A DNA stretch of 64,000 bases from Chiloscyllium plagiosum (lineage: Eukaryota). The first letter of the stretch is position 1, and each line of letters begins with the position of its first letter. The translations under genes and the position numbers were made by a program. Positions 34,661 through 64,000 of the stretch are shown here, piece by piece. The notes under the pieces were generated by a model. It was given only the letters and a program-made list of their open reading frames with translations, was not told the origin of the DNA and did no database searches. The DNA is taken from NCBI RefSeq assembly GCF_004010195.1, contig NC_057759.1, forward strand, positions 3,126,834-3,190,833. Reading direction: 5' to 3'.

Positions 34661-35219
34661 TTGTCATTGCACATTAGTGTGTGTGCATATTTGTGCATGT
34701 GATTGTGTGTAGTCATGTGTTTTTGTGTGTGAATTTCTCTATGTATGTGCATGTCAATGTGCCTTTGAGTGTTTGTTTGTGGGTGGGTGGGTGCAACACT
34801 GCATCTGTGAGAGTCTAAGTGTGTTACTGCTTGAATCATAAGCGAAATGGCCCCTTCACATACGCATTATGGATTCTGTCCATGTTGTGGATTTTGCAAT
34901 TATTAATCACAGGATCGATTGCGTTATCTTGTCAGGAGCTTTCATCCTCTAGATAGCTTCGAGTGTAGCAGAAAATCAGGGAAGCATGAGAACCGCCCTG
35001 TTCTTAGTTCTTGAGCTCTTGATGATGATGCAGCCCGGCACTGTCGATGAAGGAGTAACATTAATTCTTGCCTCTCCAAGTGATTCCATATTTCCTCAAG
35101 TAACCGTTGTAAACTTTCAGAAGGGCAGGTTGACATCATTCATTCTTCTGAAGACCAAATTCCATTCTGTTAGCTTTCGGCTGACAAGTACCTCAAATCA
35201 TCATTTGAAATGAATAGTA

Positions 35220-35525
35220 ATCATTCTTGGGACGCAGCTGTCGCTGGCAAAGTCAACTTTTATTGCCATTCCATTTTGCCGGTTGGCATTTAGGAATGAA
35301 ACACATTGCTTGGAGTCTGGAGTCAGACATAAATCAGACCAGGTAAGGACAGAGGTAAACCCTCGCTAATGGACATTAGTCAAGTATATATTCCTTTCCT
35401 TCATTAGACTATTTGAATATGTTTCAAATTTCACCATTTACAAAGGTGGAATTCAATGGAATCTCCTCAGAACATGAGCTGGGTCCTCCTGGATAGCGAG
35501 TCCATTGATAGTTCTAAAAGTCCAT
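35220..35525 (-). mobile_element. SINE sharing head/body and tail with the LINE at 11858-15365
   Basis: Reverse complement contains CCTTACCTGGTCTGATTTATGTCTGACTCCAGACTCCAAGCAATGTG followed directly by the LINE-type tail GGCAATAAAAG...CCAGCGAC. Confidence 0.75.
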
Positions 35526-37229
35526 ATCGTGTCACTATGTATTTGGTGAAGAGTTGCAGACATTTCCCATGAGTGAACGACCCCACTTCAGTTCTCAAAT
35601 GTTCTGTGACAAATTTTCCCTGTATAACTAACCAGCATATTGTGTCCATTAAAACACCCCATGTCAAAGGATATCCACCACATGTTCGCATCATAGCTAC
35701 AATCGATAGATTTACCCGCCTGGGGATGTCCTCTGTTCATTATATGCAGTTTACTCATCAGTAGCTGAGACAACATTTGAATCCACAGTTCATGGATAAA
35801 TCTTCTGAGATTATGTGAAAGTTGCAGCCAATGACTGTCGCGGTCCATGAACCCCTTGCCTTTGTTTTCCAGTTATATCCAATGGCTGCCAAAAGAGTCG
35901 GAGGGATGTGCAGAATTATAGGATGTCACGCTGGTGAATTGGAGTTCTAGAAGAGGTGCTTATTTCTTTTCTATTGCTGCATACGTTACACCCATTGAAC
36001 TGTGAAAGAGTAAATGTGTGCCATAGCTAGGAGCAACTCAGGCCATGCATGAAGTTAACTGCAGTTTCTGTAGTCTGGGTCTCTACTGATATTGCACATC
36101 TTCATGAGCCCTCACCCACTGGTTTTGAATTGTGAATAGATCTGTTCACTACATTGTTCATATTCCGTATTTTCCTTAAATAGTTAATTGATTTCAGATG
36201 GCAAATGTTGTGCAACATATTGCAATCAGGCTGCAATTGCCAGAAATGGCACAGACCCAATCACCTGACTAGCTTCTTAGAGTCGCAGTTTCGAGTCAAT
36301 GCCCCTCTACTATGTCTCGGAAGTAGGAACCAGGGGTTAACAGGTAACACCTACCAATACCATAATGACTTCCATCCAGAAGGACATGGGTGGAAGATAT
36401 ATGACAATTGAATTGAATTAGATATATTGTCGCATGGACGTGCATGAGTTAAAAACTTAAACATTATATTCCTTCTTTCTAAAACGTACAAAAAGAAAGA
36501 AACACAAAGTACTTCCTTGGAAATCCCTCTCCAAGAGCCACTCATCACCTTGACTTGGAAGTGTATCGACTATTCTTCACTGTAGTGGAGTCAAAATCGT
36601 GGAATTTCGTCGATGAGAGTTTATAGTGTGCCTCTTCACAATACACAGACCGCAGCGGCTCAAGAAGGAGTTCAAATCCCCTCCTTCACCCGAATTTCTG
36701 TAGAGCAAAAACGAGTAATGGGTGACAAATGCTATCCTAGCCACAGCCGCCCATGAAGCATGTATGATAACAATGAAAGGTTGTTGAAGAGAGCGGAGCT
36801 CTGGTTTCAGAGAAGCTGATCTGTGAGATGCCCTTGTGTCAACACCACTACCTTGCCCTCTGACTGCCTCCCAGTCTTATTGCCCCCGTCCACCCCTTCA
36901 CTGAAGGATTTCCCATCTTTGTGCCCTTCTCCCCTCTCGAGACCGGACTGTAAAACTATTTGTTGTTACCAGTGTTCGAACATGAATGGAAGAATTAAGT
37001 GTCCTGACGATGACTGAGGAACGTACAATTGTCGAGCTGATGCTTATTGAACCACGTCCACGGATATTAGCAAGGAAGCACAAGACAGTAAGTCTCTCTC
37101 CTTCTCTCTATATCTCTCTCTGCTGTCTTCAAACTTATTTGCCTCGACGTTTTATCATTTTCTTTCTGTCTGTCTCACTCTGTCATAAATTCCTAATGCC
37201 CACGTGCCACGAAGTCTTTTTAGGATTTT

Positions 37230-39537: not shown

Positions 39538-41055
39538 GATATCGGGGCAATGGCTGCCAATTCACCATCTGCTGCGAAACCCTGCAATTATACATCGAAA
39601 TAGTCACAAATATTGAGCTGTGAGACGTTAATGTTATAAAATTAAACATCACCCGTGAAGTATATCGAAGTCCATTAATTTATTGTGCTTTTTCATCACT
39701 TGCATATCCCTCTGTCATTATTAGAAGTCGTTGAGTGACACAGATTTACCTACAGACTGTCAAATACAGTGCCGTGACCCATTGCATACCCAGTGAGACC
39801 GTGACTTTCAGCAATCTTTTGGATTGTTTGGTATGCCTCACACATGCAGTCTCTCCTTTATCTCGCTCTGCTGGGCACTGCTATAATGACACACATACAA
39901 AAAAAAACCCAGAAAAATCACAATCATGCATCCACATAAACATACAGTCTCATCTTCATCTCCTGTTGTGGAACAGAATAAATATCACATATTCACAGCC
40001 TCACCTTTATACTGAGAACTCGACACTGCAGAAATCTAAGGATCTGTCTCTGTTACTTGTTCTTTTCCTGCACTACTCACAATGATTGTCAGATTTCGGA
40101 CTCACAAAACCTCGTATCTCTCCACCCTCTCCAACTCCTGCAGCCCATGCCATCTTATACCATCCTCAATCGAGAATTTTTTGCTACACCTGTAATATTC
40201 TTCATACATTACAATTACAGCTGCGTCTTCAATATGCCATAATGTTTACATCCTTACGTGTCTTTTTTGGCCTTCTCCAATTCTAACTTCACGTACATCG
40301 TTTGCTATTCTGGCATTGGCAAAGATAAGAGATATTGAAAGATGGAATGAATGGGCAATATAAATCGACAAAGGTGCTTCCATTTACTCCAGCCTGAGTT
40401 AATCCATCGTGGCATGCTGCTGCTCTCCTGCATCTGTTTCCTGGTACTCCAGGTGGATAGATCATACCCCGAACTCATTGATGAGACAGTCCTCCAGAGG
40501 GAATGGATCAACATCCGAACATGTTGATCACCCTGTTCCTCAAGGTGTGGGATTATAGACTTCTGCAGTGTCGAGTTATCAGTATAGAGGTGAGGCTGTG
40601 AATATGTGATATTCACTCTGTTCCACAACAGGAGATGAAGGTGAGACTGTATGTTTATGTGGATGCATGATTGTGATTTTTCTGGGGGGTTTTGTATGTG
40701 TGTCATTATGACAGTGCCCAGCAGAGTGAGATAAAGGAGAGACTGCATGTGTGAGGCATACCAAACAATCCAGCAGATTGCTGAAAGTCACGGTCTCACT
40801 GGGTATGCAATGGGTCATACAGCATGTGTTTGACAGTCTGTAGGTAAATCTGTGTCACTCAACGACTTCTAATAATGACAGAGGGATATGCAAGTGATGA
40901 AGAAACACAATCATTTAATGGACTTCGATATACTTCACGGGTGATGTTTAATTTTATAACATTAACGTCTCACTGCTCAATGTTTGTGACTATTTCGATG
41001 TTTAATTGCAGGGCTTCGCAGCAGATGGTGAAGTGGCAGTCATTGCCCCGACAAT
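39538..41055. repeat. ~500-bp inverted repeat pair (39538-40038 / 40556-41055) with ~520-bp spacer
   Basis: Long exact reverse-complement runs such as CACTTGCATATCCCTCTGTCATTATTAGAAGTCGTTGAGTGACACAGATTTACCTACAGACTGTCAAA. ORFs 39735..40085(+) and 40579..40818/40305..40748(-) give near-identical peptides. Confidence 0.95.
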
Positions 41056-45579: not shown

Positions 45580-48500
45580 GCCATTTCAATTCCACGACGA
45601 CTTCCATCGAGAAGGCCAAGGGCAACAGATATATGGCAACGTCACCTCCTGAATATACCGTACAAACGTATCATTAAATATGCCACCATTCCTTCACTGT
45701 CACATTGTTAGAATCCTGGAATTCCCTTACTAATGACATTGTGGTCCATGCACAGCAAGTAAATTGCAGCGGTTCAAGAAGACAGATGATTGCCACCATC
45801 TCAAGCGCAACTAGGAGAGTGTGATAAACTTTAGCCACACAGCAATGCTCACATCCGAAAAAAGTGAATTTAAAAAACAACTTGTGTGATGTCAGCATTA
45901 GGAAAAAAAGACATAAAGTGAAAGAGAAGTGAAAAGAGAGAAAAATCAATAAAGTTTGGAGGGAAGTTAGGTCATGGGACTGCAGAGAGAGACACAGAGA
46001 GATAGTGTGAGCATTAATGCCACTGTTTTCTTCCTAAAACCCTTGGACGTGGTTCAGTAAACGTCAGCTGGAGAATGGTACATCACACACACACACACAC
46101 CCCACCCCCATTATCAGGATTCTTGTTTTTTCCATTTATGCCTGAACAGTTGTAACAACCAAAGATTTTAATAGTCAGGTTTCGAGAGTGAATCAGAGCA
46201 CAAGGATGGAAAATCCTTCAGTGGTGAGGGCATGGGGGAGGAAACAACACAGGGAGGAGATCAGAGGCAGGGGAGGGGGAGACACAAGGACATCCCACAG
46301 ATCACCTTCTCTGAAATTGCTGCACCACTATCTTCACTAAGCCGTTCGTTGCTTTTCATTCAAACGACGTGGATGGCCCATTGTTTCCCAGCCCTACTTA
46401 TTGTCCTTGAAAAGGTGGAAAAGTTGCTGCATTCTGTACGTTGCAGAGCGACCCTCAATAAACTATCAGGGAGGGAATTCCAGGACCTTGACCAGGCTTC
46501 AGTGACGGAACTGGCAAATCAGGATGGTGAGCAGCTTGGAGCGGGTGTGCAAGGAACTGCTGGAAATCTCTGTGATTGTGTACATTTTATTGAGGAGAAA
46601 TATAATGTTTAACTTTTGAACTCGTGAGTAAATGTGACAATAAACCTAATTCAATTTATCTTAATTCACTTCTTATATATCTGTACCTTTGTCATTCCAG
46701 ATGGAAGTGACCATGGTTCTTGGAAGGGCTGCCAGTTATCTCCATGTTTATATTTCAGAAAGATGGTAGACGGACATGAAGTGCTGGCTGCAAACTGTGA
46801 TTCTGTACAGCTTGCTAGTTTGAAACCGATTGGGATGACAGTGTATCTACTATTTCTGACCGTTGTCCTCTGATAACGAAACGGTACATACTGGTTGCAA
46901 TCTGAAAACGGATTATGTAAGACGGGATGTGAGCAATGTCGTGAAAAGCTTTATTCACAATTTAAAAGCAATCAGTTCGGGCTCATTGGGATACACGAAA
47001 CCAAGACAGGCCCAGAGTACAGAAACTGCCGTTAGCTTCAGAAATGGCCTGAGGTGTTCCTTGCCGTGGTGCACATTTATTCTTTCACAATTCATTGCGT
47101 GTAATGTATGCAGCAATGGAAAAGAAATAAGCAGCTCTCAGCCAACACCACTTCACCAGCATTATATCCTCCAATTCGGCACACTGCACCGGATGTTTGG
47201 CAGCCTAAAGCTACAACTGGAAAACAAAGAAAAGCAGACCATTGATGTCCACACTTTGGTGCTGCAACTTTCACCTAATCTCATGAGATTTATCCAAGAC
47301 TTGTAAAGGCAAATGATACCTCATGTACTGATGACCAAACTATATTTATAAAATGACCACAAGACATTCTCACTTGAGTAACTACGTCCACTGTGATCAA
47401 GGATTGGCCATTTGTGGATATCAGTTGACGTAGGATAATTTTAAAGGACGGTCTTTAAAATAAAGTATTTATATTATTGCAAAGGTAGAAAAAGCAGGGT
47501 TTGCTTAGCTGTGGGTAATGTCTGCAACTGTTCGTCAAATGCTTCGTGACTGGATCGTGGGGATATCACTGGACTCGCCATCCAGTATCACCAAGCTTAG
47601 TTTCAGAACAGCCCCCAACAATTTGCACTATGGCAGATGATGCAATTTGAATCATATTCAAATGGTCTAATGAAGGGAACGAATATCTGCTTCATTAATT
47701 CCTTTATGGACAGATTTCTGCTGTCCTTACCTAGTCTGATTTACATGTGACTCTCGGCTCAAAAATAATGTAGTTACCATCTCAATGCCCTCTGGGATGA
47801 CAAGAAAAGATGTCTTTGCTAGTGACGCCTGTGTCCCATGAACAATTATTGTACATATCAATTGATAAGCTTAAGCACTTGCCAGCCTAAAACTAATAGA
47901 ATGTTAGTTCGTCTTCAGAGGGAAGAATGACCTCAATCTGCCCTTCTGCAAGTTTTTAAAGGCTGTTTGAGGAGAGATGAACTCACCTTGAGATGCAACA
48001 ATCAGTGTTACTTTTTTATCCGCAGTGCCTGGCTGCACCATCACCAACAGTCCAAGAAATAAGAACAGGACAGTTCTCATCCTCTACTGATTTCCTGTCG
48101 CACTAGTAGCTGCCTGGAGGATGAAACCTCCTTATACGATATCACAGACTATACTGCGGTTAATCATTGAATCCGTCCAGAACATGGACATAATCAATTT
48201 ATCTTATGAGTCAATCAGTAACACACCGAGACACATGCAGACACAGAGTCACACATACTCCCATAAACACACACTCAACCACACTGATATGTACACACAT
48301 ACCGGCACCCACACAGATAAAAACACACTGACACACACACACAGACATGCAATGGCACACACCTTCACGCGCAAAGTCACACATGCACAGTAACGCATGA
48401 AGAATAATACAGCCAGTCATGCACATACACGCGTACGCACAGACCCACAACACACCCAGTTATCAAACATAGACATACACACTCCCTCTCTCACACATAG

Positions 48501-49000
48501 TAGCATATGACTAACACAGACACACAAGTATGCACATCGACAACCACAGGTGCGCGCACACACGCGCGCACACACACACACACCATCACACAGCCATATG
48601 CACATCTATTCACACAATCAAAGGTATATATATATGAGCATTTCGCAGAGCATAAAGTGTGCCCAGTCTGCAATAATACAATATCTACAGTGTGGGACAA
48701 CTCAGACTTGGGCACTCGGCCTTGGGCAACCTCTGTATTGAACACTTGAAAGCATAACGAGATGAAAGATCCTTTTCATCTTTATTGTGGGACAATGCTG
48801 CCTTTGTTGAACTCTGGGAGACTCAATGGAGTCTTATGGCCAATGAGATCCGTGTTAGAGGCAAATATTTAACAGACCAATCCACTGACCAAAATGATCA
48901 GAGATTGTTTCTCCTCACATCCCTGAAATGAAAATATTTCTGTTAATTGTCATCTTGCATCCCTGAGGAGAGATTCGTCTCCAGCTGATTCTCAGCTACT
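45580..49000 (+). repeat. Right arm of the inverted segmental duplication (partner 32460-37500)
   Basis: Same block order in opposite orientation: LINE tail, unique block, LINE tail, unique block, SINE (47550-47845), unique block, CA-rich tract, unique block ending CAGCTGATTCTCAGCTAC (~48999). Confidence 0.88.
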
Positions 49001-49179
49001 GGGTTGCTCTTAAAGCCATATCAATCACAGGCCTGACCTTGCCATATTATTATGTATCACCATCTGTGAACAGTCTTTCAACTGCTTCACATCTTCACCT
49101 CACTGCTGTGTTGCGACTGTTGGCGTTGGGTAGCTCAGTTGGTTGGATGACTGGCTTGTATTACAGACTGACGTCACAA

Positions 49180-50140
49180 TAAAGGCCATAAGCGGCTGGA
49201 TGACGAGTCGGCTATTTGGCACCACATGTCTGCCCCTCTGGTATTCAGTAGGTTCAAGGCTGTTCTGACAACTTTCACCTCCACATTATTGCACTTTGCC
49301 TGTCACCATCGATTCCTGTACCGATCAAGGATTAATCACTTTCAACCTTAAGTATATAGAAGGATTTTGCATCCCTACTCCCCTCTCCAACAGCTCTCTG
49401 TGACAAGGAGTTCCAAATATTTGCAAACACCTGAAAAAAAAAAACTTCTTTCTCATCTTTCTCTTAAATTGATGCTTCATTATTCTGTGATATTGGTCAT
49501 GGTCTGTCCTATGAGGGGAATACCCTGTCAGCATGTACGATGTTAAGCCCGTTAAGAATCCCATGTGTTTCATGTGATATCATCTCTCATTCTTCTAAAC
49601 TCCAGTTAGAAGAGTTCCAACTGCTTTAGCCTTTTCTTAGAAGAGAATCCGTCCAGAACAGCATCATCCCAGTCAAACTTTTATGAACAGCCTCCAATTA
49701 AACAATATCCTTCCTTTAATAATGGGATGAGGAGTACTCACAAATGTGGTCTTACCAGAACCTTGTACAGTTGCAGACCCACTTCACTACTCTTATACTC
49801 CAACCCCTTTTAAATAACGATCAATGTTCTACTAGCCCTTCCTGATTGACTGCTTCCCCTGTATGCTATCTTTCTGTGTTTCGTGCAGAAATTCGTGCAA
49901 ATCCCTTGTGTTGCAGCTTTCTCCATTTAAATAATACTCTGTTCTTCTGTTCCCCCTTCTGAGATGAACGTCTTCGCACATCATACACCATTTACAACTT
50001 TTATTTCTCCACTGACTTAAACCATCAACATTTCTCTATAAAATGTTTGCACCCCTTTCACAATCTGCTTTTCTACCTATTGTTACATCAGTTTTGGCGA
50101 CAGAACAGTAACTTCCTTGCTCCAAGCCATTAATACCATG
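49180..50140 (-). mobile_element. Old CR1 LINE 3' portion, apparently splitting a tRNA-derived SINE (49125-49180 and 50140-50220)
   Basis: CR1 C-terminal sequence on the minus strand. SINE head GGGTAGCTCAGTTGGTTGGATGACTGG lies before it and SINE-body-like GAGGTGTGGCGACCGTCAGGTTAGACCAC after it. Confidence 0.7.
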
Positions 50141-50699
50141 CAGGTTCCACCTTCCCAAGTTCTCCCCTCATGTAGAGGTGTGGCGACCGTCAGGTTAGAC
50201 CACAAGCAGTTGTCTCCCAATAGTTACACATTTTTTAAGAGCTTCAATATTTTCTTCAATATTTACTTCTGAAGCGGAACCAGTCACTATCCTGTCTAAT
50301 GATCTTATTCAAGCTGTTGTGAATTTCTGTACTTATTGTGAGTCAGCCATTTATTCACAGCCTAACCTGCAGCATACCATGAGGAAGTCAAATAGTATGT
50401 TGGCCTTCATTGCAAGAAGATAGGAGTTCAGAAGTCGTGAAATTTCATTAAATTTCATGGGGCCTTAGTGAGACTCACGCTGGAGAATTGTGTGTTGGTT
50501 TGGTCTCCTTTCCTCACACAGGACATTCTCGCTAAAGAGGGAATGCTCATCGAGATAGCTCAATAATTCAATGACATCATGGCTGATTTGATCATGCTCG
50601 ACTTGGTATGCACTTATGATGCCGAGGTATGCAAGCCAATGAGCCAGCTGCTGAAAATTCGTATTGGAACGTGATTACATTATTGGAGAGGTAATTACC

Positions 50700-50947
50700 C
50701 ATTGGTAGTATTCATAGATTGTTCATCTAGAGAAAAGTTTGGAATGATGAGTCTAATGGTGACCTAGCAACTGTTGTTGCTTCGTGAAGATATCCATCTG
50801 GTTCACTGCTCCCCTTTACTGAAATCTTCAATTCATGTACTCCATACACTCGGTGATGTGGTTGACTTTCACCTGCCATCTGCGCAGTTAGGGAAGGTGA
50901 TAAATGCTGGCCCATCATTGATGTCTCAACCTATAGCTGAATAAAAC
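50700..50947 (+). mobile_element. SINE of the same family as 35220-35525 and 47550-47845
   Basis: CATCTGGTTCACT...GATGTGGTTGACT...GCAGTTAGGGAAGGTGATAAATGCTGGCCC tail. Confidence 0.7.
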
Positions 50948-51439
50948 AATAGAAATGTTCTTGTTTTCAACTGGCACACATTAGAAGGCCTAAGGGCCTA
51001 GTTTTCTGTGCTGTGGGCCAGTATGAATGTGTTGTTGATGCACTGTCAATTGACATTATGGTGTCTCAGCGCACCTGTTCCCACTGATAGGTGACAGGGA
51101 CGGATTACAGTGGACTAGAATCTCTGCCAAATGTTCCCGTTTTCCGTGCTTGAGCTGAAACATTGAGGTAGAGGTTGGAATAACATCATAACTTGCCCAG
51201 GCTCAGCAGTTAAAAGCGTGCTGTCGCCCTCTAGTGAATCTGTTCTAACAGTGTGACACGATCATCCCCAGGAAAGGAGACATATCAATCTAGGCTATAC
51301 ATTTTGCATATCATGACCATCCAAGAATAACTGTATTAGATCTTCAACGCATCAGCTGTAGTCTTGCCATTTTCTGACGTCCCTTCTCTCCCTGTTAGTA
51401 AGCCAAATCACCATACCAAAGAAGTATTAGTGGCTGATA

Positions 51440-52070
51440 GAATTTAACTATGATAAATACGAGCTGACACAATTCGGAAGAAGAGAAACAAGAGAGTGCT
51501 CAATAAATGGCAGGAGACCAGAAATCCCAGAGAAACAGAAGCATTTTGAGGTGTTCGTCCACAGATCAGTGAAGGCAGCATGAAAGGTTAATTAGTTAAG
51601 GTGGCAAATGGAAAACTTAACTTTATCAATCATGGTGTATAGATTAAAAAAGCAGGGAGGTGATGATGGAGCTGTACAGGACTGTAGTGAGGCTACAGCT
51701 GGAGTACTGTGTACAGTTCCAGTCTCCACACTGTATGAAGGATATGATTACGTTAGACGGTTTCCAGAAAAGATACACCAGGATGTTGCTGGGATGGAGC
51801 AGTTAATTTATGTTGAGAGGTTGGATAAGCTCTGGTTGCTATCTTTGTAGGAGAGAAGTTTGAGGGGGCATCTAATACACATATAAGAGATTCTGTGGAA
51901 TATGAACACGAGGGAATAGGAAGAGGATGTTCCCATTTGTCGAAAGATCAATAACAGAGACCCAATTTTAAAATGCTAGAACTAAGCTTCAGAGTGGATT
52001 TGAGGAAACTTTGCATCAGCCAGAGGGTAGGGTGTGATCGACAGGGATGATTAGAATGCATTGCCTGGGA
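51440..52070 (+). mobile_element. Old CR1 LINE ORF2 C-terminal fragment
   Basis: MELYRTVVRLQLEYCVQF, TRMLLG, YVERLDKLWLLSL. Confidence 0.8.
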
Positions 52071-52074
52071 TGTG

Positions 52075-52935
52075 GGTGTGGGCTGGTTGGCCACCACTTT
52101 TGCCCGTCTCTAAATTGCCCTTGAGAATGAGATGGTAATATGCTTTCTTGGATCTCTGCAGTCCATGTGCTGCAGGTTTACCCACAACGTCATTGTAAAG
52201 AATTCCAATATATTTACCCAGTATCAGTGAAGAACCGATTATGTACTTCCAAGTTAAATGGTGAGTGGCTTGGAGTGGAACTTGCAACGTGGGATGTTTC
52301 TAGGTATCTGTTACATTTGTCCTTTGAGATGGAAGTGTTCATGGGTTTGGACAGTGTTGTCTGAGGATCATTGATGAATTTTTAAAGTTCATTTTGCAGA
52401 TAGCATACTGTTTTAACTTGGTGTTGGTGGTGCAGAGAGTGGATGTTTGTAGATGTGGAACTAATCGTGTTTGTTCCTGGATGGTGTCGAACTTGAAGTG
52501 TTGTTGGAGCTGCACTCATCCAGGAAAGTGAGGAGTATTCCATCACACTACTGCCTTCTGCTTTATTAATGGTAGACAGGCCTTAGGTAGTCAGATGAGT
52601 TACTCACCTCAGTATTCCTTGCTTGTGGCCTGCTCTTATAGCGATTCTGTTTAGATGGTGAGTTTCTGGTCAAGCTCAAGAATGTTGATAGTGAGGGATT
52701 CATTACGGTAACATTGAATGTCAAAGGACAGTGGTTGGAATGTATTTTATTGGTGATAGTCAATGATGGACACTTGTGTGTCAGGAATGTTATTTGCCAC
52801 TCGCCAGCTCAAGCCTGGGTATTACACAGATCTTGCTGCACATGAACATGGACTGCTTTAGTATTTGAGGAGTCACAAATGGCGCTGATCATTATACAAT
52901 CATTGACGATCGAATCTACTTCTGAAATGATGTTG
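52075..52935 (-). mobile_element. CR1/L2-group LINE 3' fragment (family of 11858-15365)
   Basis: SAICDSSNTKAVHVHVQQDLCNTQA, VMEYSSLSWMSAAPT, and the family tail. Confidence 0.8.
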
Positions 52936-53029
52936 GACACCAGGCTGATCTCTGGGACTACGGTAAGAGGAGAGGGTGAGAAGTGTTCGGCCTGCATGCA
53001 TTAACGTTTGGAAGAATGAATTGAGCAAA

Positions 53030-55000
53030 GAACAAAGTAGATTAAACACAGGAACTGGCCCTCCAAGCCTATGCCGATCCTGATCATCTATCTCAACCTG
53101 TCACCTGACTTCTAAAGATCGATATCAATCTACTTCCTACCCAATCATGCATATGTCTAGGCACACTTGAAATGATGCTAAAGTGCCTGCGACTACAATC
53201 TCCACTAGCTATATATTCTAGGCACCCATTATTCTATGTTTTAAGAGGTTTCCACGCATACTTTCCTTAATCTTTTCCTCTTTCACCTTGAACTGGTGAC
53301 CACCAGCAATTAAGTCCCATAATTTGTGAAAAAAAAAATATTGTATTACCCACCACGTCTGTGCCTCTCATGATTTTGAGATATTATCAGGCTCCACCTC
53401 AGCATCTATCTTTCTAAAAAAAAAACTTCATCCACTCAACCTCTTTTCATAGCTAGCACCCTCTATACCAAACAGCATCCTGCCGAACCTCCTCTGTGTC
53501 CTCTACAAAGCATCCATATCCTTTTGGTAATGTGGCAACCGGATATGCACAAAGTATTCCAAATGTGTCCGAAACAATAGTTGGCAGGTCACGTTACGCA
53601 ATACACTGTGCGATGAAGGAAAACATGTCATATGCCTTCTTGAACACTCCACCGACCTGCATTGCCAACTTCATGGTACAATTGACCGGAACACCCAGAT
53701 CTCTTTGCACATCAATATTACCCAGCGCTTTTTCATTTACTGTATAGTTTGCTCTTGAATTGGATCTTCCAAAATGCATCACCTCGCATTTGCCTGGATT
53801 GCCTCCATCTGCCAATTCTCTGTCTAACCCTCCAATCAACTTGTGCACTGCTGCATTCTCTGACAGAACTTTCACTATCTGCTACTCCACCAATCTTCTT
53901 ATGTGTTATTTGGACCACCTAAACTTTCTTCCAGATCATTTATGATTATCACAAACAACAGTGGTCCCAACACGGATCCCTGTGGAATACCTTTGGTCAT
54001 GGTTCTACATTTTGAGAAACTCCCTTCCACAACTACTCTCTGTGTCCTGTTGCCCAGCCAGTTGTCGAACCATTGAGCTGGTACGCTGGACCTTATGCAA
54101 CATCACTTTCTCCACCAGTCTACCATGGAGAACCTTATCAAGGCCTTATTGAAGTCCATGTATATGACATCTACAGCCCTTCCCTCATCAATCAACTTTG
54201 CCACTTCCCCAAGGAATTCTAACGAATTGATAAATCATAACTTTCTCTGCGCAAAATCATATCGCCTATCACTGATAAGCCAATTTTCTTCCAAATATAA
54301 ATAGATCCTATCTCTCAGTATCTTCACAGCAGCTTCACTAACACTGACGTCACCAATCTATAATTGCCTGGAATACGTGGTGCCCTTGTGAAGCAATTGG
54401 ACAGCATTGGCAATTCTCCATCTCAGCTATATTCAATGATGCTGCAAAGATATCTGTTAAGGCTCCAGCTATTTCCCCTCTCACTCCCCTCAGCAACCTC
54501 TGATAGATCCCATCCAGACCTAGAAACTTGTCGACCTTAATGCCTTTTAGAATACAACACTTCCTCTATCCTTATGCCAACTTGACCTAGAGTGATCAAA
54601 CATCTATCCCGAACATCAATATCCTTCATGTCCCTCTCCTCATTGAATACAGATGCAAAGAACTCATTAAATATCGCCCTTTTTCTCTAAGTCCATGCAT
54701 GAGTTTTCTCCTTTGTCCTTGAATGGGCCGACCCTTTCTCTAGTTACTCTCTTGCTGCTTACATGCAAATAAAGGGCTTTGGGATTTTTTTTTTCCGTGA
54801 CCCTGTTTGCTAAAGATATTTCATGACCCCTTTCAGATTGGTCCAACAGTCCCGATGTTGCTCCAAAGCGTCATCTGTTTCAGCCGCCTAGACCTTCTGT
54901 ACGTTTCTTTTTCCTCTTAGCTAGTGTCACAATTTCACCTGTCATCTATGACTCCCTAATCTTGCCGTTGCTATCCCTCATTTTTTACAGGAGCATGTCA
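53030..55000 (-). mobile_element. CR1 LINE ORF2 3' two-thirds
   Basis: KCEVMHFGRSNSR...DVQRDLGVPV; AVDVIYMDFNKALIR; tail AAAGAACAAAG. Confidence 0.88.
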
Positions 55001-55049
55001 CCTTAATGAAACATAGGATTCTTAGGGGACTTGATAGGACGGTATTTCT

Positions 55050-55260
55050 TGGAGTGTCACAGTGGTTAGCACTGCTGCCTCACAGCGTCAGGGACCTGGA
55101 TTCGATTCCAGCTCGGGTGACTGCATGCAGTTTGTAAATTCTCCCCATGTCTACGTGGGTGTGCTCCTGTTTCCGATCACAATCCAAGAATTTGCAGGTT
55201 AAGTGAAATAGCCAGTGTGGACATGTTGGGCTGAATAGCCTGCTTGCACAATGTAGGGGT
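55050..55260 (+). mobile_element. HE1/V-SINE-type SINE (older copy)
   Basis: CACAGTGGTTAGCACTGCTGCCTCACAGCGTCAGGGACCTGGATTCGATTCCAG head and V-domain remnant. Confidence 0.85.
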
Positions 55261-55329
55261 TCTAAGATTCTAAGAGGATAGATATAAATAGGTCTTTTAC
55301 CCTTGTAGGCGAGTCTAGGGTACGGCTGC

Positions 55330-56190
55330 AATAATTATAACAAATTAGAAATTATGCGGAAGACAACCCTGAGCCATAGATGGGCCTGTTCCAGTGTTTA
55401 TTCCAGATACTTGGAGACTGCCATACCTTGCTTGATTCTTCTGCATGAGCATTGATCTGTTTCTCACGTGTGGACTATTTATGAATAACTTCCTTGGCTT
55501 TTCATTCATCTCCGTCCAGTTTGCAATGAAGAGTGGAATAGGTGGAAGTTTCGTTGTTTCAAAATTGTCATAAATAAATTCATTTGTGTTGTTTTGGCAG
55601 ATAGATGATGTCACATACAAATTTCCATTATGTTTAATGAAAATGGTTAAATAAGAAGCAACATTACCAATCGGTACATTATATCCGTTCAAACACATCA
55701 CTTCTGTCTGTATGGTATCTGAAGCTCCGATGAGACCATGCTGAGAAAAAAGGTTGGCTGTTCACTGGGAAAATAGATAATCAACAGTTTGTATAAAAAA
55801 GCAAATTCACATTGTGTAAGGCTTTCTCTCATCATTCCTTTAGGAATGCCCATTCCTTCCATCTTTATTGCGCTGGGTTAAGCCTACCATAACTAAGTTG
55901 TCTCCGAAGTAAGCAATTTAAGAGCTGCTGTACGATGACACCAAGATGATATTAGTACATCCGTCAGATTTAACACTACCTGTACGGGTCTCTATGCAGG
56001 CAGCAAAGGTGCAGTTTCTTCCAACACTAATCTAATACCCCCTGCATTTCTAACTTGCTACATTGTGAATCTGAGCAGGATTGGGTTTCATGGTGGTGTG
56101 AGTCGAAATGTAGGTGTGAGTGAGTCGTCCTTACAAAGCATGAAAACTGATCTTGTTGCTGGACACATAACTGAATTTTCTGAAATCTCT
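55330..56190 (-). pseudogene. env: Putative env C-terminal fragment of the spuma/loki-like ERV
   Basis: Immediately 3' of pol on the same strand. Cys-spaced segment MCPATRSVFMLC (56168-56133); ORF 55345..55701 with NxT/S sequons (NNT, NWT); Trp-rich SKVWQSPSIWNKHW in an adjacent frame, then hydrophobic FVIIIAAV. No CX6CC or ISD motif seen. Confidence 0.5.
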
Positions 56191-56199
56191 AAACTCTGC

Positions 56200-58100
56200 A
56201 AACTATTCCACTCCATTAAGCTTCTCTACATACATTCCACATCCTGTCCTCTGTTGCCAATTTTGCAGAGATGAGCAGCTGTCAACAAAAAAGCTAAGTG
56301 TAATATTTCATTTTCTGAATTCTCTTCGCCAGCACGGCCTCCATTTTATTTGAATGCGAAAGGCCCTTTGGGATCGTTTGCTATCAGCACGTGACATTCA
56401 TGAGGTGTACCCTGTTTAACTGAACTGTCTGCTAACATGATGGTATTTTCAACGCTTTTTACGTCGAAGTCCCTTCTTTGTGACAGCAATATCCATCTGG
56501 CAATCCTATTCTGACTCATTGTACCATCATTAATATGTCCATCCGGCAGCATCTGAATGGATGCATATTCTGTAAGAATTGTCAATGTGTTAACACTACA
56601 ATGTAAGTAAAACATTGTACAGCCCAGAACACAGACAATAAAAGCCTTTCACATGTTGTATCCCCCTGTTCTACTGGCGTGAATATGGGTGAAGCATAGA
56701 ATACTCACCTCAAATGACTATGTACCTCTTACCAATATTGTGGGGTCTGTTACAGCCACTTCCAAAGAAGGTGGTTCCCCTGGGTTTGAGTGTTTCAGAG
56801 CAGGAGAGCTCACCACGCCGTATTTCAAAACTATCATTGCAAGTGTTCTGGCTTCCATTCCCGTGGAACACTTTTCTTAAATGTCATTACTGGTGCTGCC
56901 TTTGTCGTGATAATTTGTTCTATCCAATATTCAATCAAGCCCAAAAACGATCTTATAGCCTTCACATCTGTGGGGAAGGATAGTCGTAATTGTTGTTCCA
57001 ATCTGTGGTTTATCTATCTCCCTCTTGCCTGGTATTAACACCATTCCTAAATAACAGACTTCCTCCATCATTATCTGAACCTTTAGATTTAGATTAGATT
57101 AGATTAGATTACAGTGTGGAAACAGGCCCTTCGGCCCACCAAGTCCACACCGACCCGCCGAAGCGAAACCCACCCATACCCCTACATTTACTCCTTACCT
57201 AACACTAAGGACAATTTAGCATGGCCAATTCACCTGACCCTGCACATCTTTGGACTGTGAGAGGAAACCGGAGCACCCGGAGAACGTGCAAACTCCACAC
57301 AGTCAGTCGCCTGAGGCGGGAATTGAACCCGGGTCTCTGGCGCTGTGAGGCAGCAGTGCTAACCACTGTGCCACCATGCCGCCCACAAATTTATCAGATT
57401 AACTTTGAAGCAAAATATCTTTAATATTTACGACAATCTATTCAGGAACTGGTAATGGTCCATTCAGTTCCCGTTTGTAAAAGCAAATCACCAACATACT
57501 TTATCAGAGAGCCTGACCTAGAAACATCCAGTCACCCATTGATGAAACATTGATGTGGAATTGGGAAATTCCTGTGGTAAAGTCGTCCACTGTGTTTGCT
57601 ATTCTTTAAAGGGTAACGCAAATTTATACTGACCCTCCTTCGTGAATGGGATTGACTAAAATCAATTGTTGATGTCTAATCGTGTAAAACATTGTGTTAA
57701 CTCGCTTCGATTAATTATTGTTTCAAGGCTCGTATTCTCTGTAGGAGCTGCCTTATGTCTCACGTTGTTTGGTTCTTTGTAGTGAACGGTTAACCACTGG
57801 CTCCAATCTGGATTTCTAACTGGCCAAATTGGAGAATTCTCAGCGGAGGTGACAGGTCATAGTACTCCTTGAGTTAATGGACTCTGAAATCCTTTCTCGA
57901 TGTTTCTTTCTGCCTGTTTGGGAAACCAATATTGATTGTGTGGCTTCAGGTCTGGTCCTTCCATACAAGCTTCTGCTTGCATCCTTCCACGATCATGTTT
58001 GCTATTGGCAAAATAATTTTAGTTCGCTGTTAATGTAGCGTGGTCCATTGGATCCCAGTTCACGTCTGTTGAGATAGTCTTTTTCTGAACCATGCTGAGA
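56200..58100 (-). pseudogene. pol: Endogenous retrovirus pol (RT, tether/connection, RNase H start), spuma/lokiretrovirus-like, decayed
   Basis: Minus translation: FANSKHDRGRM..GPDLKPHNQYWFP..TQGVL*PVTSAENSPIWPV (58013-57818); LDINN*F*SIP..QYKFALPF..WTTLPQEFPNS (57680-57555); IKYVGDLLL (decayed YVDD, ~57490); KVQI..EVCYLG..PTDVKAIRSFLGLI; YASPIFTPVEQGDTTCERLLLSVFWAVQCF..NRIARWILL; then a second RNase H start FFVDSCSS..RTGCGMYV (~56290-56225). Confidence 0.85.
57086..57386 (-). mobile_element. HE1/V-SINE-type SINE inserted in ERV RT
   Basis: Reverse complement of the SINE at 12311-12635, with a (TCTAA)n tail. The RT frame reads KVNLI|KVQI across it. Confidence 0.93.
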
Positions 58101-58129
58101 CCAGAGTCCTCGTGAATCGCACATCTAGG

Positions 58130-60870
58130 GCTGTAGACAGGGTTCTAAATAAAATTAGGAGGGGAGTGTTCAGTTATAGAGAAATTTAGAAAACCCGAAT
58201 CAAAAAGGAGTTAAGAGTGCAGAATTCAAGGGAGGTTATTAAAATCTAAACACCGACACAAAGAGAAAAGTGTATCTGGAGAGGTTGAGCAATCAAGCTT
58301 CAAGCACGTTGGGCAAACGAATGACAATGGGAAGAGGAATGGGTACTCCAGGACTGAAGGTGTTATATCTGAAAGTAGGCAGTGTAAGGAATAAGGAAAA
58401 CGAAGTTGTGACGCAGATCGAAAATGGCAGGTATGGCCTGGTGGTCATCACTGAGACGTGACTGCAAGAGGATCAGAATTGGGAGCTGAATATTCAAATA
58501 TATACATCCTAAAGAAAAGATAGGCAGGTGGATATGGTGGGGGTGGGGTTTCCCTATTAGTAAGAAATGAAATTAAATCAATCATTAGTAATCAAGTAAT
58601 GTCAGATGGTCTAGACTCTGTGTGGGTAGAATTGAGGAACCGCATATGTTAAAAAAAAAAATCACAGTTGGAGTCATGTATAGGTCTCCAAACAGTAGTC
58701 AGGAGCTGAGGCGCAAAATATATCAAGAGTTAGAAAAGATGTGTAGAAAACACAAAGCTACAGTGATCATGGGGACCTCAATATATTGGTGTACTGGGAA
58801 ATTCGTGGAGTTAGTGGATTGAAAGAAAAGGAATTTGTGGAATATCGAAGCGATTACTTTTTGGAGCAGCTTGTGGTGGAGCGCTGGAGAGAACAGGCAA
58901 CAGTAGTTTAGAGTTTTGCAATGAGGCTGTCTTGATAAGACAGATTAAAGTGAAGAAACACTTAGGAGGCAGTGATCATAATATGATCGAATTTGCTCTG
59001 CAATTTGAGAGAGATAAAATAGAATTAGAGGTAATTACAGCCGAACAAAAGTAATTACAGCGGCATGAGGGAGGAGCTGTGTAGAATTGGCTGGAAGAGG
59101 AGCTTAGCAGTAAAAACAGTGAAACAGCAATGGCAGGATTTTCTGCGAGTAATACAGGAGATACAGCAGAGATTCATCCCAAGGAAAAGGAAGAGTGGCT
59201 CAGGGAAGATGAGGCTAGTCAGGGATAGCATAAAAGCAAAAGAGAAAGCATATAATGTTGCAAAGTGCAGTGGGAAACCAAAGATTGGAAATCTTACAAA
59301 GACCAACAGAGGGCACAAAAGAACGATATAAGGAGGGAGACGATTAAATATGAGGGTTAAATATAAAAGAAGACTGTAAGTGATTCTTTAGATATATAAA
59401 GGGCAATAGAGATGCAAAAGTGGACATTGGGGCGCTGTAAAATGACACTGTAGAGATCGTCGTGGGGAAAAGGAAATGGCGAAGGAACTGAACAAAAACT
59501 TCACATCAGTCTTCACGGTGGAAGAAACGATTAAGACTCCCAAAAAAATCAAGAACGTGACGGGGCGAGCTGAGTATCGTGGCCATTAACAAGGAGAGGG
59601 TGTTAGAAGAACTGAATAGCTTGAAGGCAGATAAATCATCTGGATCAGATATACCACAGCCAAAGAGTTCTCAGGGAGACTGTTGAAGAGGTAGTGGAGG
59701 CAGTAGTGGTTATTTTTCACGAATTGCTAGAATCTGGGAAGGTCCCAGACGGCTGTAAAATTGCAAATGTGACATCCCTGTTTAAGAAGGGAGTAAGGGG
59801 CAAGACAGAAAATTAATGACTGATGAACCTCAACTCAGTTGTGGGTAGCATTTTGGAATCCATTGTTAAGGGTGAGAGTTCTGAATATGTGGAAGCTTAA
59901 GTTAAAATAGGACAAAATAAACATGGTTTCATCAAGGGGAGGTTTTTACTGACCTTCGAGAATTCATTGAGGAAGTAATGACCAGATTAGACTAAGGAAG
60001 CCAATGGGTATCATTTAATGGCATTCAAGAAAAACTTTGACATGATGTCACACAGGAAACTATTGAGTAACATAGGGCCAATGGTATTTGAGGCAAGATG
60101 CTAGCATGGATAGAAGCTTGGCTGTCTGAAAGAAAGCAGAAATTGGACATGAATGGTTTTTTCTCAGAATGTCTGATAGTGATAAGTGGTGTTGCGCAAT
60201 TTTCAGTTTCAGACTACGATTTTGCATTCAATATACTAACTATATAGATGAAGGAACTGGAGGTATTCTGGCTACGTTTGCAGACGATGTAAACACAGGT
60301 AAAGTGAACAGTAACATTGAATCAGAAGGATTTGTGCAAGTTAAGAGAGTGGACAAAGGAGTGGCAGATGCAGTACAAGGTGGGAAAATGTGAAGTCGTG
60401 CACTTTGGTGGGAAGAATAGATGCATGTTCTATTTTTAACATGGCAAGATTATTCAGAAATCTGAATTTCAAAAAGACTTGGCAGTTCTATTCCAGGATT
60501 CTCTCAACATAATCGTGCAGGTTGAGTCAGCAGTCAGAAAAGCAAATGCAACGATGGCATTTCTTTTGTGAGGACCTGAATAGAAAAGCAGAGATCAATT
60601 TCTGAAACTCTATAATGCTCTGGTAGGACGACATTTGAGATATTGTGCGCAGTGTATTGGAGCGAGTTCAGATGAGAATGGCCCCAGGAATGAAAAGTTT
60701 AACGGAAAAAGAATGTTTGAGGACTCTGAATCTATACTCGATGGAGTTTAGAAAAATGTCGGGAAAACAAATTAAATTATAAAGTACACTGAATGTCTGT
60801 ACAGAGTGAATGTTTTGAAGATGTTTCTCTTGATAGCAGAGGCTATGACTGAGGACAAAGCCTTATAGTA
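58130..60870 (+). mobile_element. Long old CR1 LINE (ORF1 end, nearly whole ORF2)
   Basis: GLKVLYLKVGSVRNKENE..YGLVVITET, VGVMYRSPNS, LGGSDHNMIEF, IANVTSLFKKG, HGFIKG, TFADD. The 3' remainder lies at ~61660-61890. Confidence 0.88.
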
Positions 60871-61660
60871 GAGTCATAGAAATGTACAGCGTGGAAACAG
60901 GCCCTTCGGTCCAACCCGTCCATGACGACCAGATATCCCAACCCAATCTAGTCCCACCTGCCAGCACCCGACCCATATCGCTCTAAACCTTTTCTATTCA
61001 TGTTCTCATCGAAATGCCTCTGAAATGTTGCAATTGTACCAGGCGCTACCACTTCCTCTGGCAGCTCATTCCATACCTGCAAGACCCTCTGTGTGAAAAA
61101 GTTGCCCCTTAGGTCTCTTTTATGTCTTTCCCCTCTCATCCTAAAGCTATGCCCTCTAGTTCTGGACTCCCAGACCCCAGGGAAAATACTTTGTCTATTT
61201 ATCCTATCCATGCCCCTCATAATTTTGTAAACCGCTGTAAAGTCACCCCTCAGCCTCTGACCCTCCAGGGAAAACAGCCCTAGCCTGTTCCACCTCTCCC
61301 TGTACCTCACATTCTCCAACCCTGGCAACATCCTTGTAAATCTTTTCTGAACACTTTCAAGTTTCACAACATCTTTCCGATAGGAAGGAGACCAGAATTG
61401 CACGCAATAGTCGAACAGTGGCCTAACCAATTTCCTATATAGCCGCAACATGACCTCCCAACTCCTCTACCCAATACTCTGGCCAATGAAGGAAAGCATA
61501 CCAAACGCCTTCTTCACTATCCTATCTACCTGCGATTCCACTTTCAAGGAGTTATGAACATGCACTCCAAGGTCTCTTTGTTCAGCAACACTCCCGAGGA
61601 CCTTACCATTAAGTGCATAAGTCCTGCTAAGATTTGCTTTCTCAAAATGCAGCACCTCGA
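60871..61660 (-). mobile_element. Younger CR1 LINE 3' portion inserted into the older CR1
   Basis: ORFs 60948..61451 and 61467..61655 are canonical CR1 ORF2 C-terminus; same subfamily tail as 30068 and 9421. Confidence 0.93.
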
Positions 61661-61889
61661 ATGGGGATAAGGTGAAAATGCTTCAGACGGAGAATGGCCT
61701 CAGTAGGTTTTGGAGGCCAGGAGATTGAGTACTTTTGAGACTGAGATAGATCTTGGATATGAAGGGTTATGGGGAGAAAGCAAGAGAATGGGATTGAGAA
61801 ACGTATCAGCTATGGCTGAAAGGTGGAGAAGAGTTGATGGGCTGAATGGCCTAATTTCTGCCCAAATGTCTTATGGCCTAATGGTCTTA

Positions 61890-62210
61890 ACAGACAAGGT
61901 CTTTTCCCCGGGTAGAGGAGCCCAAGGCTATTGGGAATCAATTTAAGAAAAGAGGTGAAAGATTCAAAATGGATGGAAGGGGCAAAATCTTCATGCAAAG
62001 TGTATTCCGTGTATGGAATGAGCTGGCAAAGGAAGTGGTAGAGGCGAGTGCAATTGCAAAACTTAGAAGGTATCTGGACGAATATATGAATAGGAAGGAT
62101 TTCGAGCATTATGCTTGTAAATGGACCTAGATTTTTATAGGCTACCTGATCGGCATAATTAAGTTGGATGGAATGGTCTATTTCCGTGCTTTACATCTTT
62201 ATGACTGCAT
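61890..62210 (+). mobile_element. CR1 LINE 3' end
   Basis: VFRVWNELAKEVVEASAIAKLRRYLDEYMNRK. Confidence 0.8.
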
Positions 62211-62429
62211 GATTCCATTACATCCATTCGTCAACGGTAATTGATTCTTTAAACTTCTCCATTTTCGTCTCCCACTCTGTTATGACAGAAAACTCTATAT
62301 TCAGGAATATTGAGCTGTCAATTTTGCCTCTCATTTTGCTAGAGTTATAGCAAGCGTATAATGTAACCAAACGTCTATCAGTGTCCTTAATGAGTCTGGC
62401 ATGTATACAATATTCAGTTAGTAACAATA

Positions 62430-62575
62430 ATACTGCAGATGCTAGAATTCAAAGTAGACAGGCAGAAGGACAGAATAACACAGCAAGCCAGCACCATCAG
62501 GAAATGGAGAAGTCGATGTTTCTTGTGTAACAGTTCTTCAGGATTCAAGTGTTCTTCCAGCCTCCTGCCTGTCAT
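62430..62575 (-). mobile_element. Penelope pLTR tail remnant with short inverted copy
   Basis: CTGCAGATGCTAGAAT...GGAGAAGTCGATGTTTC...CTTCAGG is the reverse complement of the pLTR/hammerhead tail. GACAGGCAGAAGG vs CCTCCTGCCTGTC form an inverted pair. Confidence 0.6.
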
Positions 62576-63189
62576 CTTGTTTACAATAATCATTCCATTG
62601 AATTATAAACCGTTCAACCATGTCAATTTCCTTTCTTGGACGCTTTCTAAACCCGTTTTGTTTGACTTTCTATATCACTGAACACATCACTATTAGGGCT
62701 GGGAAGAAATGGGGAGCACAAAATTCCTGACAGCTTCTCACAGTTAATGCAGCAGAATATGATTGAAAGTGATTAGAAAGCTTGGGTAAATATTTGATTT
62801 CTGCTGTCTTCACAAGTTGCAACAACAGTAGCTCTGTAGTTCCATAGTAATTGCACTGCAGCTGCAGTTATTTTTGCGTACGACATATAAAAGAACATTT
62901 CATATTACTTTCAATTAGTGAATTTCTCTTGAATTATTTATTCCATCTGTTACAATACTAATATGACATGTTAGTTATGATCCTTCAAATAATCATTGAT
63001 ATAGATTGTGAAGCGATCATAGATTCACCTATGTAAAAAAAACACACTAAAAGCATTAGAGGAAATGATTCAATTAAAGTTATGAGAGTCTCAAGCTGTA
63101 AAGGCAGTCCTCATCACATTACAGGGAGAATTGGATGACAGGTACAGAAACTAGCAGATATTGGAATGTGGGTTGAATAAGCACATTGT

Positions 63190-63935
63190 AAGACCGTAAG
63201 ACCATAGATCCATTAGACGTAGGAATAGAAATTAGATCTTTCAGCCCATCGAGTCTGCTCTGCCATTCTATTACGGCTGAAAATTTCTCAATTCTGTTCG
63301 CCTGCTTTCTCCCCAAGCCCTTGATTTCTTTGACAATCAATAACTTATCTGTTACAGTCTTGTTTATATTCCATAGATTCGTTACTCTCTGGCTGAAGAT
63401 GTTTCTCCTAAACCGTCTTCCTTTTACTCGAAGGCTGTGCCCTCGGGTCCTAGTCTTTAATATCAATGGAACTATCTTCTCAACATTCACTCTATCCAGG
63501 CCTTTCAGTATTCTGGAAGTTTCAATTGGACCACGCCTCCCACCTGAACCTTCTAAACTCCATCCAGTATTGACCCAGAGTCCTAAACTTTCTTCATATG
63601 TTCAGTTTTTCATTCTTAGGACCATCATCGTGAACTTCCTCTGAACATGCTTCAGGGCTAGGACATTCTTCCTGTTATATGGGGTACAAAACTGCACACA
63701 ATACTCCCAATGTGGTCTGACCATAGCCTTTTTGAGGCTCAAAAGTAAATCACTGCTTTTATATTTAAGTCTGTTCAAAATAAATGACGGTATTGCATTT
63801 GCCTCCCGAACTACTGACACAACTTGGAAGTTGACCTTGAGAGAATCCTACACTAGAACTCCCAAGTCTCTTTGCACTTCAGATTTCGGAATTCTCTCCT
63901 CGTTTAGAAAATAGTCAATGCATCTATTCTTCTTA
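63190..63935 (-). mobile_element. CR1 LINE 3' portion
   Basis: KAMVRPHWEYCVQF..VQRKFT; TRTRGHSLRVKGRRF..FSQRVTNLWN. Confidence 0.88.
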
Positions 63936-64000
63936 CACCTAAGGATAAAGACAAACTTGTCCAATAAATGCAGTGAGAAAGAAACTGCTCTCAACTCATT

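Follow-up and report, generated by a model that had tools for sequence, protein, structure and literature searches.

The region 55,330-58,100 of the window (the whole stretch of 64,000 nucleotides of Chiloscyllium plagiosum DNA that was analysed) is a dead, heavily and twice deleted remnant of an old LTR-bounded endogenous retrovirus (ERV) on the minus strand. Its features are collected in Table 1. In six-frame translation, a decayed pol can be followed on the minus strand from about 58070 to 56205. The motifs LDI-N-F-SIP, QYKFA and LPQ-F-NS all lie in one frame at about 57680-57555 on that strand, as the sequence-only reading had described them, while the catalytic motif that it gave as YV(D)D reads YVGD in the window and YIDD in the copy on contig C29. 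The RT frame of the window matches RVT_1 of Pfam with E=2e-5, and in PDB it scores 56.6 bits on foamy RT, 37.8 on MLV and 33 on Ty3. With an intact frog pol as guide, the alignment covered 435 residues (38% identical) and ran through 6 stops, 6 frameshifts and a single gap of about 300 nt. The gap is the SINE of Table 1. The SINE is missing from the duplicate L002, so it entered the RT after the locus was duplicated. Thus the decayed pol with its RT motifs, SINE and tether is confirmed by the RVT_1 match, the frog pol alignment and the comparison with the duplicate. The tether itself is recognised in the C29 copy as RT_RNaseH with E=9e-5. The second RNase H start, also pointed out before, is there but short: the FVD motif and the two following strands at about 56290-56205 could be aligned to 4 independent copies and 2 duplicates.

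Table 1. Features of the retroviral remnant, in coordinates of the window
Feature	Position	Strand	Evidence
RT N-terminal part (fingers/palm), decayed	57391..58070	-	Pfam and PDB matches; frameshift-aware alignment; DNA matches to other copies
SINE inside RT	57085..57390	-	absent from duplicate L002; alignment gap of about 300 nt; repeats elsewhere in window
RT C-terminal part (palm/thumb), decayed	56850..57084	-	frameshift-aware alignment; DNA matches to other copies
Tether (degenerate first RNase H)	56390..56849	-	frameshift-aware alignment; RT_RNaseH match in C29 copy
Linker and first ~28 codons of second RNase H	56205..56389	-	DNA alignment
Env remnant 1: end of N-terminal (surface) subunit, stops before cleavage site	55886..56190	-	match to C29 copy
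Env remnant 2: C-terminal ectodomain of fusion subunit, to about the membrane anchor	55340..55855	-	env matches to other copies
SINE fragment, 3' edge of remnant	55055..55275	-	

Two deletions shaped the downstream part. A large one after about 28 RNase H codons removed the remaining RNase H, the integrase and the 5' part of env, and joined pol to env. The second, at about 55885-55855, took the cleavage site, the fusion peptide and the first heptad region. Env remnant 1 matches the C29 copy at 68% over 311 nt (E=7e-21). Env remnant 2 contains a stop-free frame of 138 codons at 55345-55761, and it matches the env frame of an independent copy with E=3e-5. No LTR remains in the window, and the copy is inert, encoding nothing functional today.

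Is the downstream segment, which the sequence-only reading had counted as part of the element, found with other copies of this pol? DNA searches of the 3.56-Gb genome of the same species gave 17 matches each for the RT and for the downstream segment, the window counted. Note that five matches are continuous with the downstream part of the window (C50 twice, C8, C61995 and C85067) and have matching flanks too. They are segmental duplicates, and were therefore not counted as evidence for linkage of pol and env; they show only that the deletions are old. The whole neighbourhood at 48000-64000 is duplicated on C50 (twice), C8 and short contigs with 67-90% identity. The window also has a large near-perfect inverted repeat at 39542-41051, whose arms are complementary at 92-96%, and in an older duplication 34897-36171 is repeated in inverted orientation at 46919-48169. 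Among 18 other loci, several of which were chosen through an env search, downstream env pieces are present in 14, and in 10 they follow the tether of this pol, at a distance 2-4 kb or more greater than in the window.

In the C29 copy, the tether is followed by the second RNase H, the integrase (rve, E=0.002) and env, and LTR-like repeats flank the whole. A TGG-starting stretch like a primer-binding site stands directly after its 5' LTR (L070, about 1960-1985), and it may be of the tRNA-Asn type. The independent copies give the layout of the family as LTR-pol(RT-tether-RNase H-integrase)-env-LTR. The LTR pairs of 3 copies are 0.21-0.24 apart in K2P distance, which at a mammalian rate would put the germline entry at least about 50 million years ago; a repeat pair on C17 was left out of this dating because it has no match to the family LTR. 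The shark substitution rate assumed in PMC4422223 is slower, and would make the family LTRs far older than about 50 million years. Another fragment, of a gamma-type env that by eye is like that of CmiERV lineage I, lies at L028:4417-4911 on the plus strand. It is opposite in orientation, between the LTR-like repeats of a family copy, and is probably a nested insertion.

What kind of envelope did the family have? Its env is composed of a signal peptide, a Thr/Pro-rich stretch, a furin site, an apolar Gly/Ala segment, a long helix, a C-subunit of about 400 residues and an anchor. The basic (furin) cleavage site, the apolar segment, which is like a fusion peptide, and the long amphipathic helix are found in the middle of env in many copies, and in the old copies a hydrophobic anchor follows about 1.0-1.1 kb after the cleavage and helix region. 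No immunosuppressive-domain (ISD) motif was found in 24 env loci or in the window, and the CX6CC matches there either lie in a frame other than that of env or coincide with the anchor. The scan missed a decayed gamma control as well and is weak when taken alone.

An env homologous to this one is carried by a second ERV family, which is younger, GC-rich and high in copy number and sits on another branch of the RT tree (RT loci L083, L087, L088, L095, L099, L102 and L105; env loci L196 and L202-L218). In this young family, env lies about 3.5-4 kb downstream of the RT and can be read without stops over 400-500 codons; its C-subunit is 461 aa long with the anchor at 404. The env of the old family matches the young env in sequence search with E=5e-9 and in HHalign with 96.8% and E=2.6e-10, and against each of the two young references the nine independent old copies that were compared all score above every one of 8 shuffles. 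Compared directly with the young env, the env pieces in the window reach E=0.01 (misaligned) and E=6.3, barely above shuffles, and the window env is thus tied to the young env only via the old independent copies. Against the Pfam and PDB sequence libraries the env gave no match; PF00523 searched over the genome gave nothing above the cut-off, with one match at E=8, and a word-index homologue search with the env alignment returned none. As a side observation, a 0.7-2 kb piece of a single decayed env is repeated at eight other sites with 98-99.7% identity (together L127-L135, on nine contigs, L129 being at C4:18.97 Mb). The left ends of these copies vary, and the right ends all lie in or at the end of a repeat tail of about 215 nt. 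The repeat inserted there, presumably a Penelope-like one, has likely carried the dead env DNA along by recent transduction.

To which retroviruses does the pol belong? A search of 1.84 billion representatives gave 355 matches, the best named of which are pols of turtle, bullfrog, Xenopus and coelacanth. Word-index homologue searches found none for the window RT and only distant Gypsy for the C29 RT, and scans of viral and metagenome contigs gave no match. Reference labels were set by eye against the supplementary RT alignment of PMC7947760: P0024 is the match of snakehead retrovirus (SnRV), P0044, P0088, P0098, P0120 and P0131 are matches of loki rows, and P0035 was named WEHV1. Foamy-like retroviruses are represented in the trees by proxies (P0104, P0154 and P0040, labelled by eye), in a set without mammalian foamy RT. 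IQ-TREE was run with 56 and with 31 of 99 rows, two short RT rows being omitted. In the 56-row tree, the loki clade (100/100) is sister to all other retroviruses, the window's family (100/99) is inside the canonical retroviruses (99/100), and the Gypsy outgroup (100/99) stands apart from it. In the second tree, for which the copies were translated along a loki guide and a site-heterogeneous model was applied, the family still falls in the canonical retroviruses (94/93), outside loki. Grouping the family with class I was rejected by the AU test (p=0.007), in line with the earlier assignment to Retroviridae and to neither Gypsy nor class I. Grouping with the foamy-like proxies was rejected as well (p=0.0135), and the suggested spuma placement fails against these proxies. 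The group of the family with SnRV and the frog and coelacanth sequences is not rejected (p=0.38), and the best tree shows it. The bootstrap of the node that ties the family to SnRV proper is 51-59, and this fork is unsettled in the site-heterogeneous tree.

The alignment scores point in the same direction. In frameshift-aware alignment, the window scores 577 and 548 on frog SnRV-like pols, 268 on the SnRV match, 264 and 281 on loki and 233 on WEHV1. The RNase H and integrase of 4 out of 4 independent copies score best on a frog SnRV-like pol. Judged by its sequence, the window pol is firmly placed as a canonical retrovirus pol, excluded from loki, class I and Gypsy. It most likely sits on the snakehead-retrovirus-like branch (class III, clade Huo), with a weak tie to SnRV. 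One may ask whether the family is instead a separate and unnamed basal lineage of canonical retroviruses, not specifically SnRV-like, that carried an F-type env. The family and its sister (with P0103) do form a clade of 100/99-100 on an unresolved basal polytomy, and the env is unlike that of CmiERV lineage I. However, the best tree recovers the SnRV grouping, the AU test does not reject it, and the RT motifs are nearly those of SnRV. We regard such a basal lineage as unlikely, yet as an explanation to be taken seriously.

The fold of the env was then approached by structure prediction. A model of the env fragment has a helix at 34-101 (pLDDT 71) and no match in BFVD. For the young env, AlphaFold gave a model of poor quality (pLDDT 32), in which helices precede a beta-rich half. 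Foldseek with this model put a torovirus spike at rank 1 of BFVD (E=0.0016), feline foamy Env at rank 2 (0.037) and a paramyxovirus F0 at rank 5 (0.26), and foamy Env at rank 1 of PDB (E=1.5). No Foldseek match reached E<=0.001, the best being 1.6e-3, and VIA-align on the same model found generic helices only. Compared by eye with two published loki Env sequences, the young env has its motifs and cysteines in a parallel order over the stretch between the first strand and the beta-rich domains. The sequence features of env, the sub-threshold fold ranks and this likeness to loki together make an F-type fold likely, short of proof. The family thus probably had a class I fusion protein of F type, comparable to the Env of loki and foamy viruses, as far as models of this quality can tell. 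The earlier suggestion of a non-gamma env stands in so far as no gamma-type motif is in frame, and its F-like side is likely, with Foldseek matches below significance. An SnRV-like ERV whose env is a class I fusogen without relation to F or to foamy or loki Env would agree with the lack of any significant sequence or structure match. It is improbable, for the top of the BFVD list has three members of the F/foamy/spike superfamily, independent of each other, and the subunit sizes and motif order fit loki Env.

The proposal of a lokiretrovirus, which would be the first from cartilaginous fish, has the dual RNase H and a tether and env that by eye resemble loki sequences on its side, but it is very improbable and is refuted for the RT, since grouping with loki was rejected (AU p=0.003), the family stands outside the loki clade (100/99-100) in each of the two IQ-TREE trees, reading along a loki guide making no difference, its RNase H and integrase score lower on loki, and it lacks the PFG motif. 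This motif is found in 24 of 24 loki RT rows of the PMC7947760 alignment, and the family has LPQ(G/E)F in its place, like SnRV by eye. The tether with a second RNase H is common to all retroviruses and Odin, and so is not diagnostic of loki. The motifs KHD-G, GP---P and P-VEQ--CER-LL, which had been taken as loki signs, are also present in the SnRV-like P0013 and P0015 and, by eye, in CmiERV lineage I. The earlier remark that loki are not known to have been reported from cartilaginous fish agrees with Fig. S1 of PMC7947760, where they are found in 0 of 6 genomes. With a likely F-like env on a non-loki pol, an F-like env does not identify a lokiretrovirus.

The remnant is thus best read, with a probability of about 0.7, as an SnRV-like canonical ERV with a likely F-type class I fusion env, not a gamma-type one. 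Its ancestor would have been an ordinary enveloped retrovirus, with reverse transcription and integration indicated by the pol domains. Its Env would have been cleaved by furin and would have fused membranes via the heptad-repeat hairpin of F proteins. After germline entry, at least about 50 million years ago, the window copy may have lost its LTRs, gag, protease, most of RNase H, integrase and fusion peptide; it would have been carried along in segmental duplications and later have taken up the SINE.

What does it mean for the evolution of retroviral envelopes? The copy in the window is no more than a dead fragment, and cartilaginous fish were already known to carry SnRV-like ERVs; the interest of the family lies in the origin of retroviral Env. 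In the literature covered, largely outside subscription journals, we found no paper on an F-type env with an SnRV-like pol, nor on loki in sharks. It is possible, at slightly below even odds, that at least two canonical (non-loki, non-foamy) retrovirus lineages in this genome have an Env that is homologous to that of loki and to the F protein of paramyxoviruses. If this is true, it gives, together with foamy Env, a scenario that the F-type fusogen is the ancestral retroviral envelope and that gamma-type Env is a later replacement. An ancestral F-type Env would contradict the independent gains that the published work prefers. If canonical pols of two lineages indeed carry an F-type env, with natural env frames free of stops still present in the genome, the question of Env origin can be tested directly.

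Compared with known systems, the family is closest to SnRV and SnRV-like ERVs, with which it shares the motifs of RT, tether, RNase H and integrase and gives the best alignment scores. SnRV-like ERVs are known from elephant shark as CmiERV lineage I (PMC4422223), and clade Huo spans all vertebrate groups (PMC6001957). There are two differences. CmiERV lineage I, the pol relative in elephant shark, has by eye a gamma-type env with ISD and CX6CC, which the window's family lacks, and SnRV (P0024) has an insert before the integrase that was not seen in the family.

With the lokiretroviruses (PMC7947760; lokiorterviruses in PMC9040795), the family shares the dual RNase H, the env architecture and, by eye, the order of motifs and cysteines in the fusion subunit. 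It differs in its RT, which is outside the loki clade and without PFG, and in the N-terminal env subunit, about 250 residues against about 110 in loki. In these papers, Wang and Han present the F-like Env as a feature of loki in which no resemblance to the Env of canonical retroviruses can be detected, and they favour the view that the two groups gained their Env independently. The screen in 10.1101/2021.11.23.469661 covers only gamma- and beta-type Env. Gamma-type Env has a short TM subunit with ISD and CX6CC, whereas the C-subunit of the young family is of the length given above. Foamy viruses and the foamy-like ERVs of fish and amphibians have, like the family, a fusion subunit of about 400 aa, and foamy Env is its top PDB and second BFVD match, below significance. 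The RT groups differently from their proxies, and the large receptor-binding domain of foamy Env has no counterpart in the family env. The fold of foamy Env has itself been linked to paramyxo/pneumovirus F in PMC11468914 and PMC12583693.
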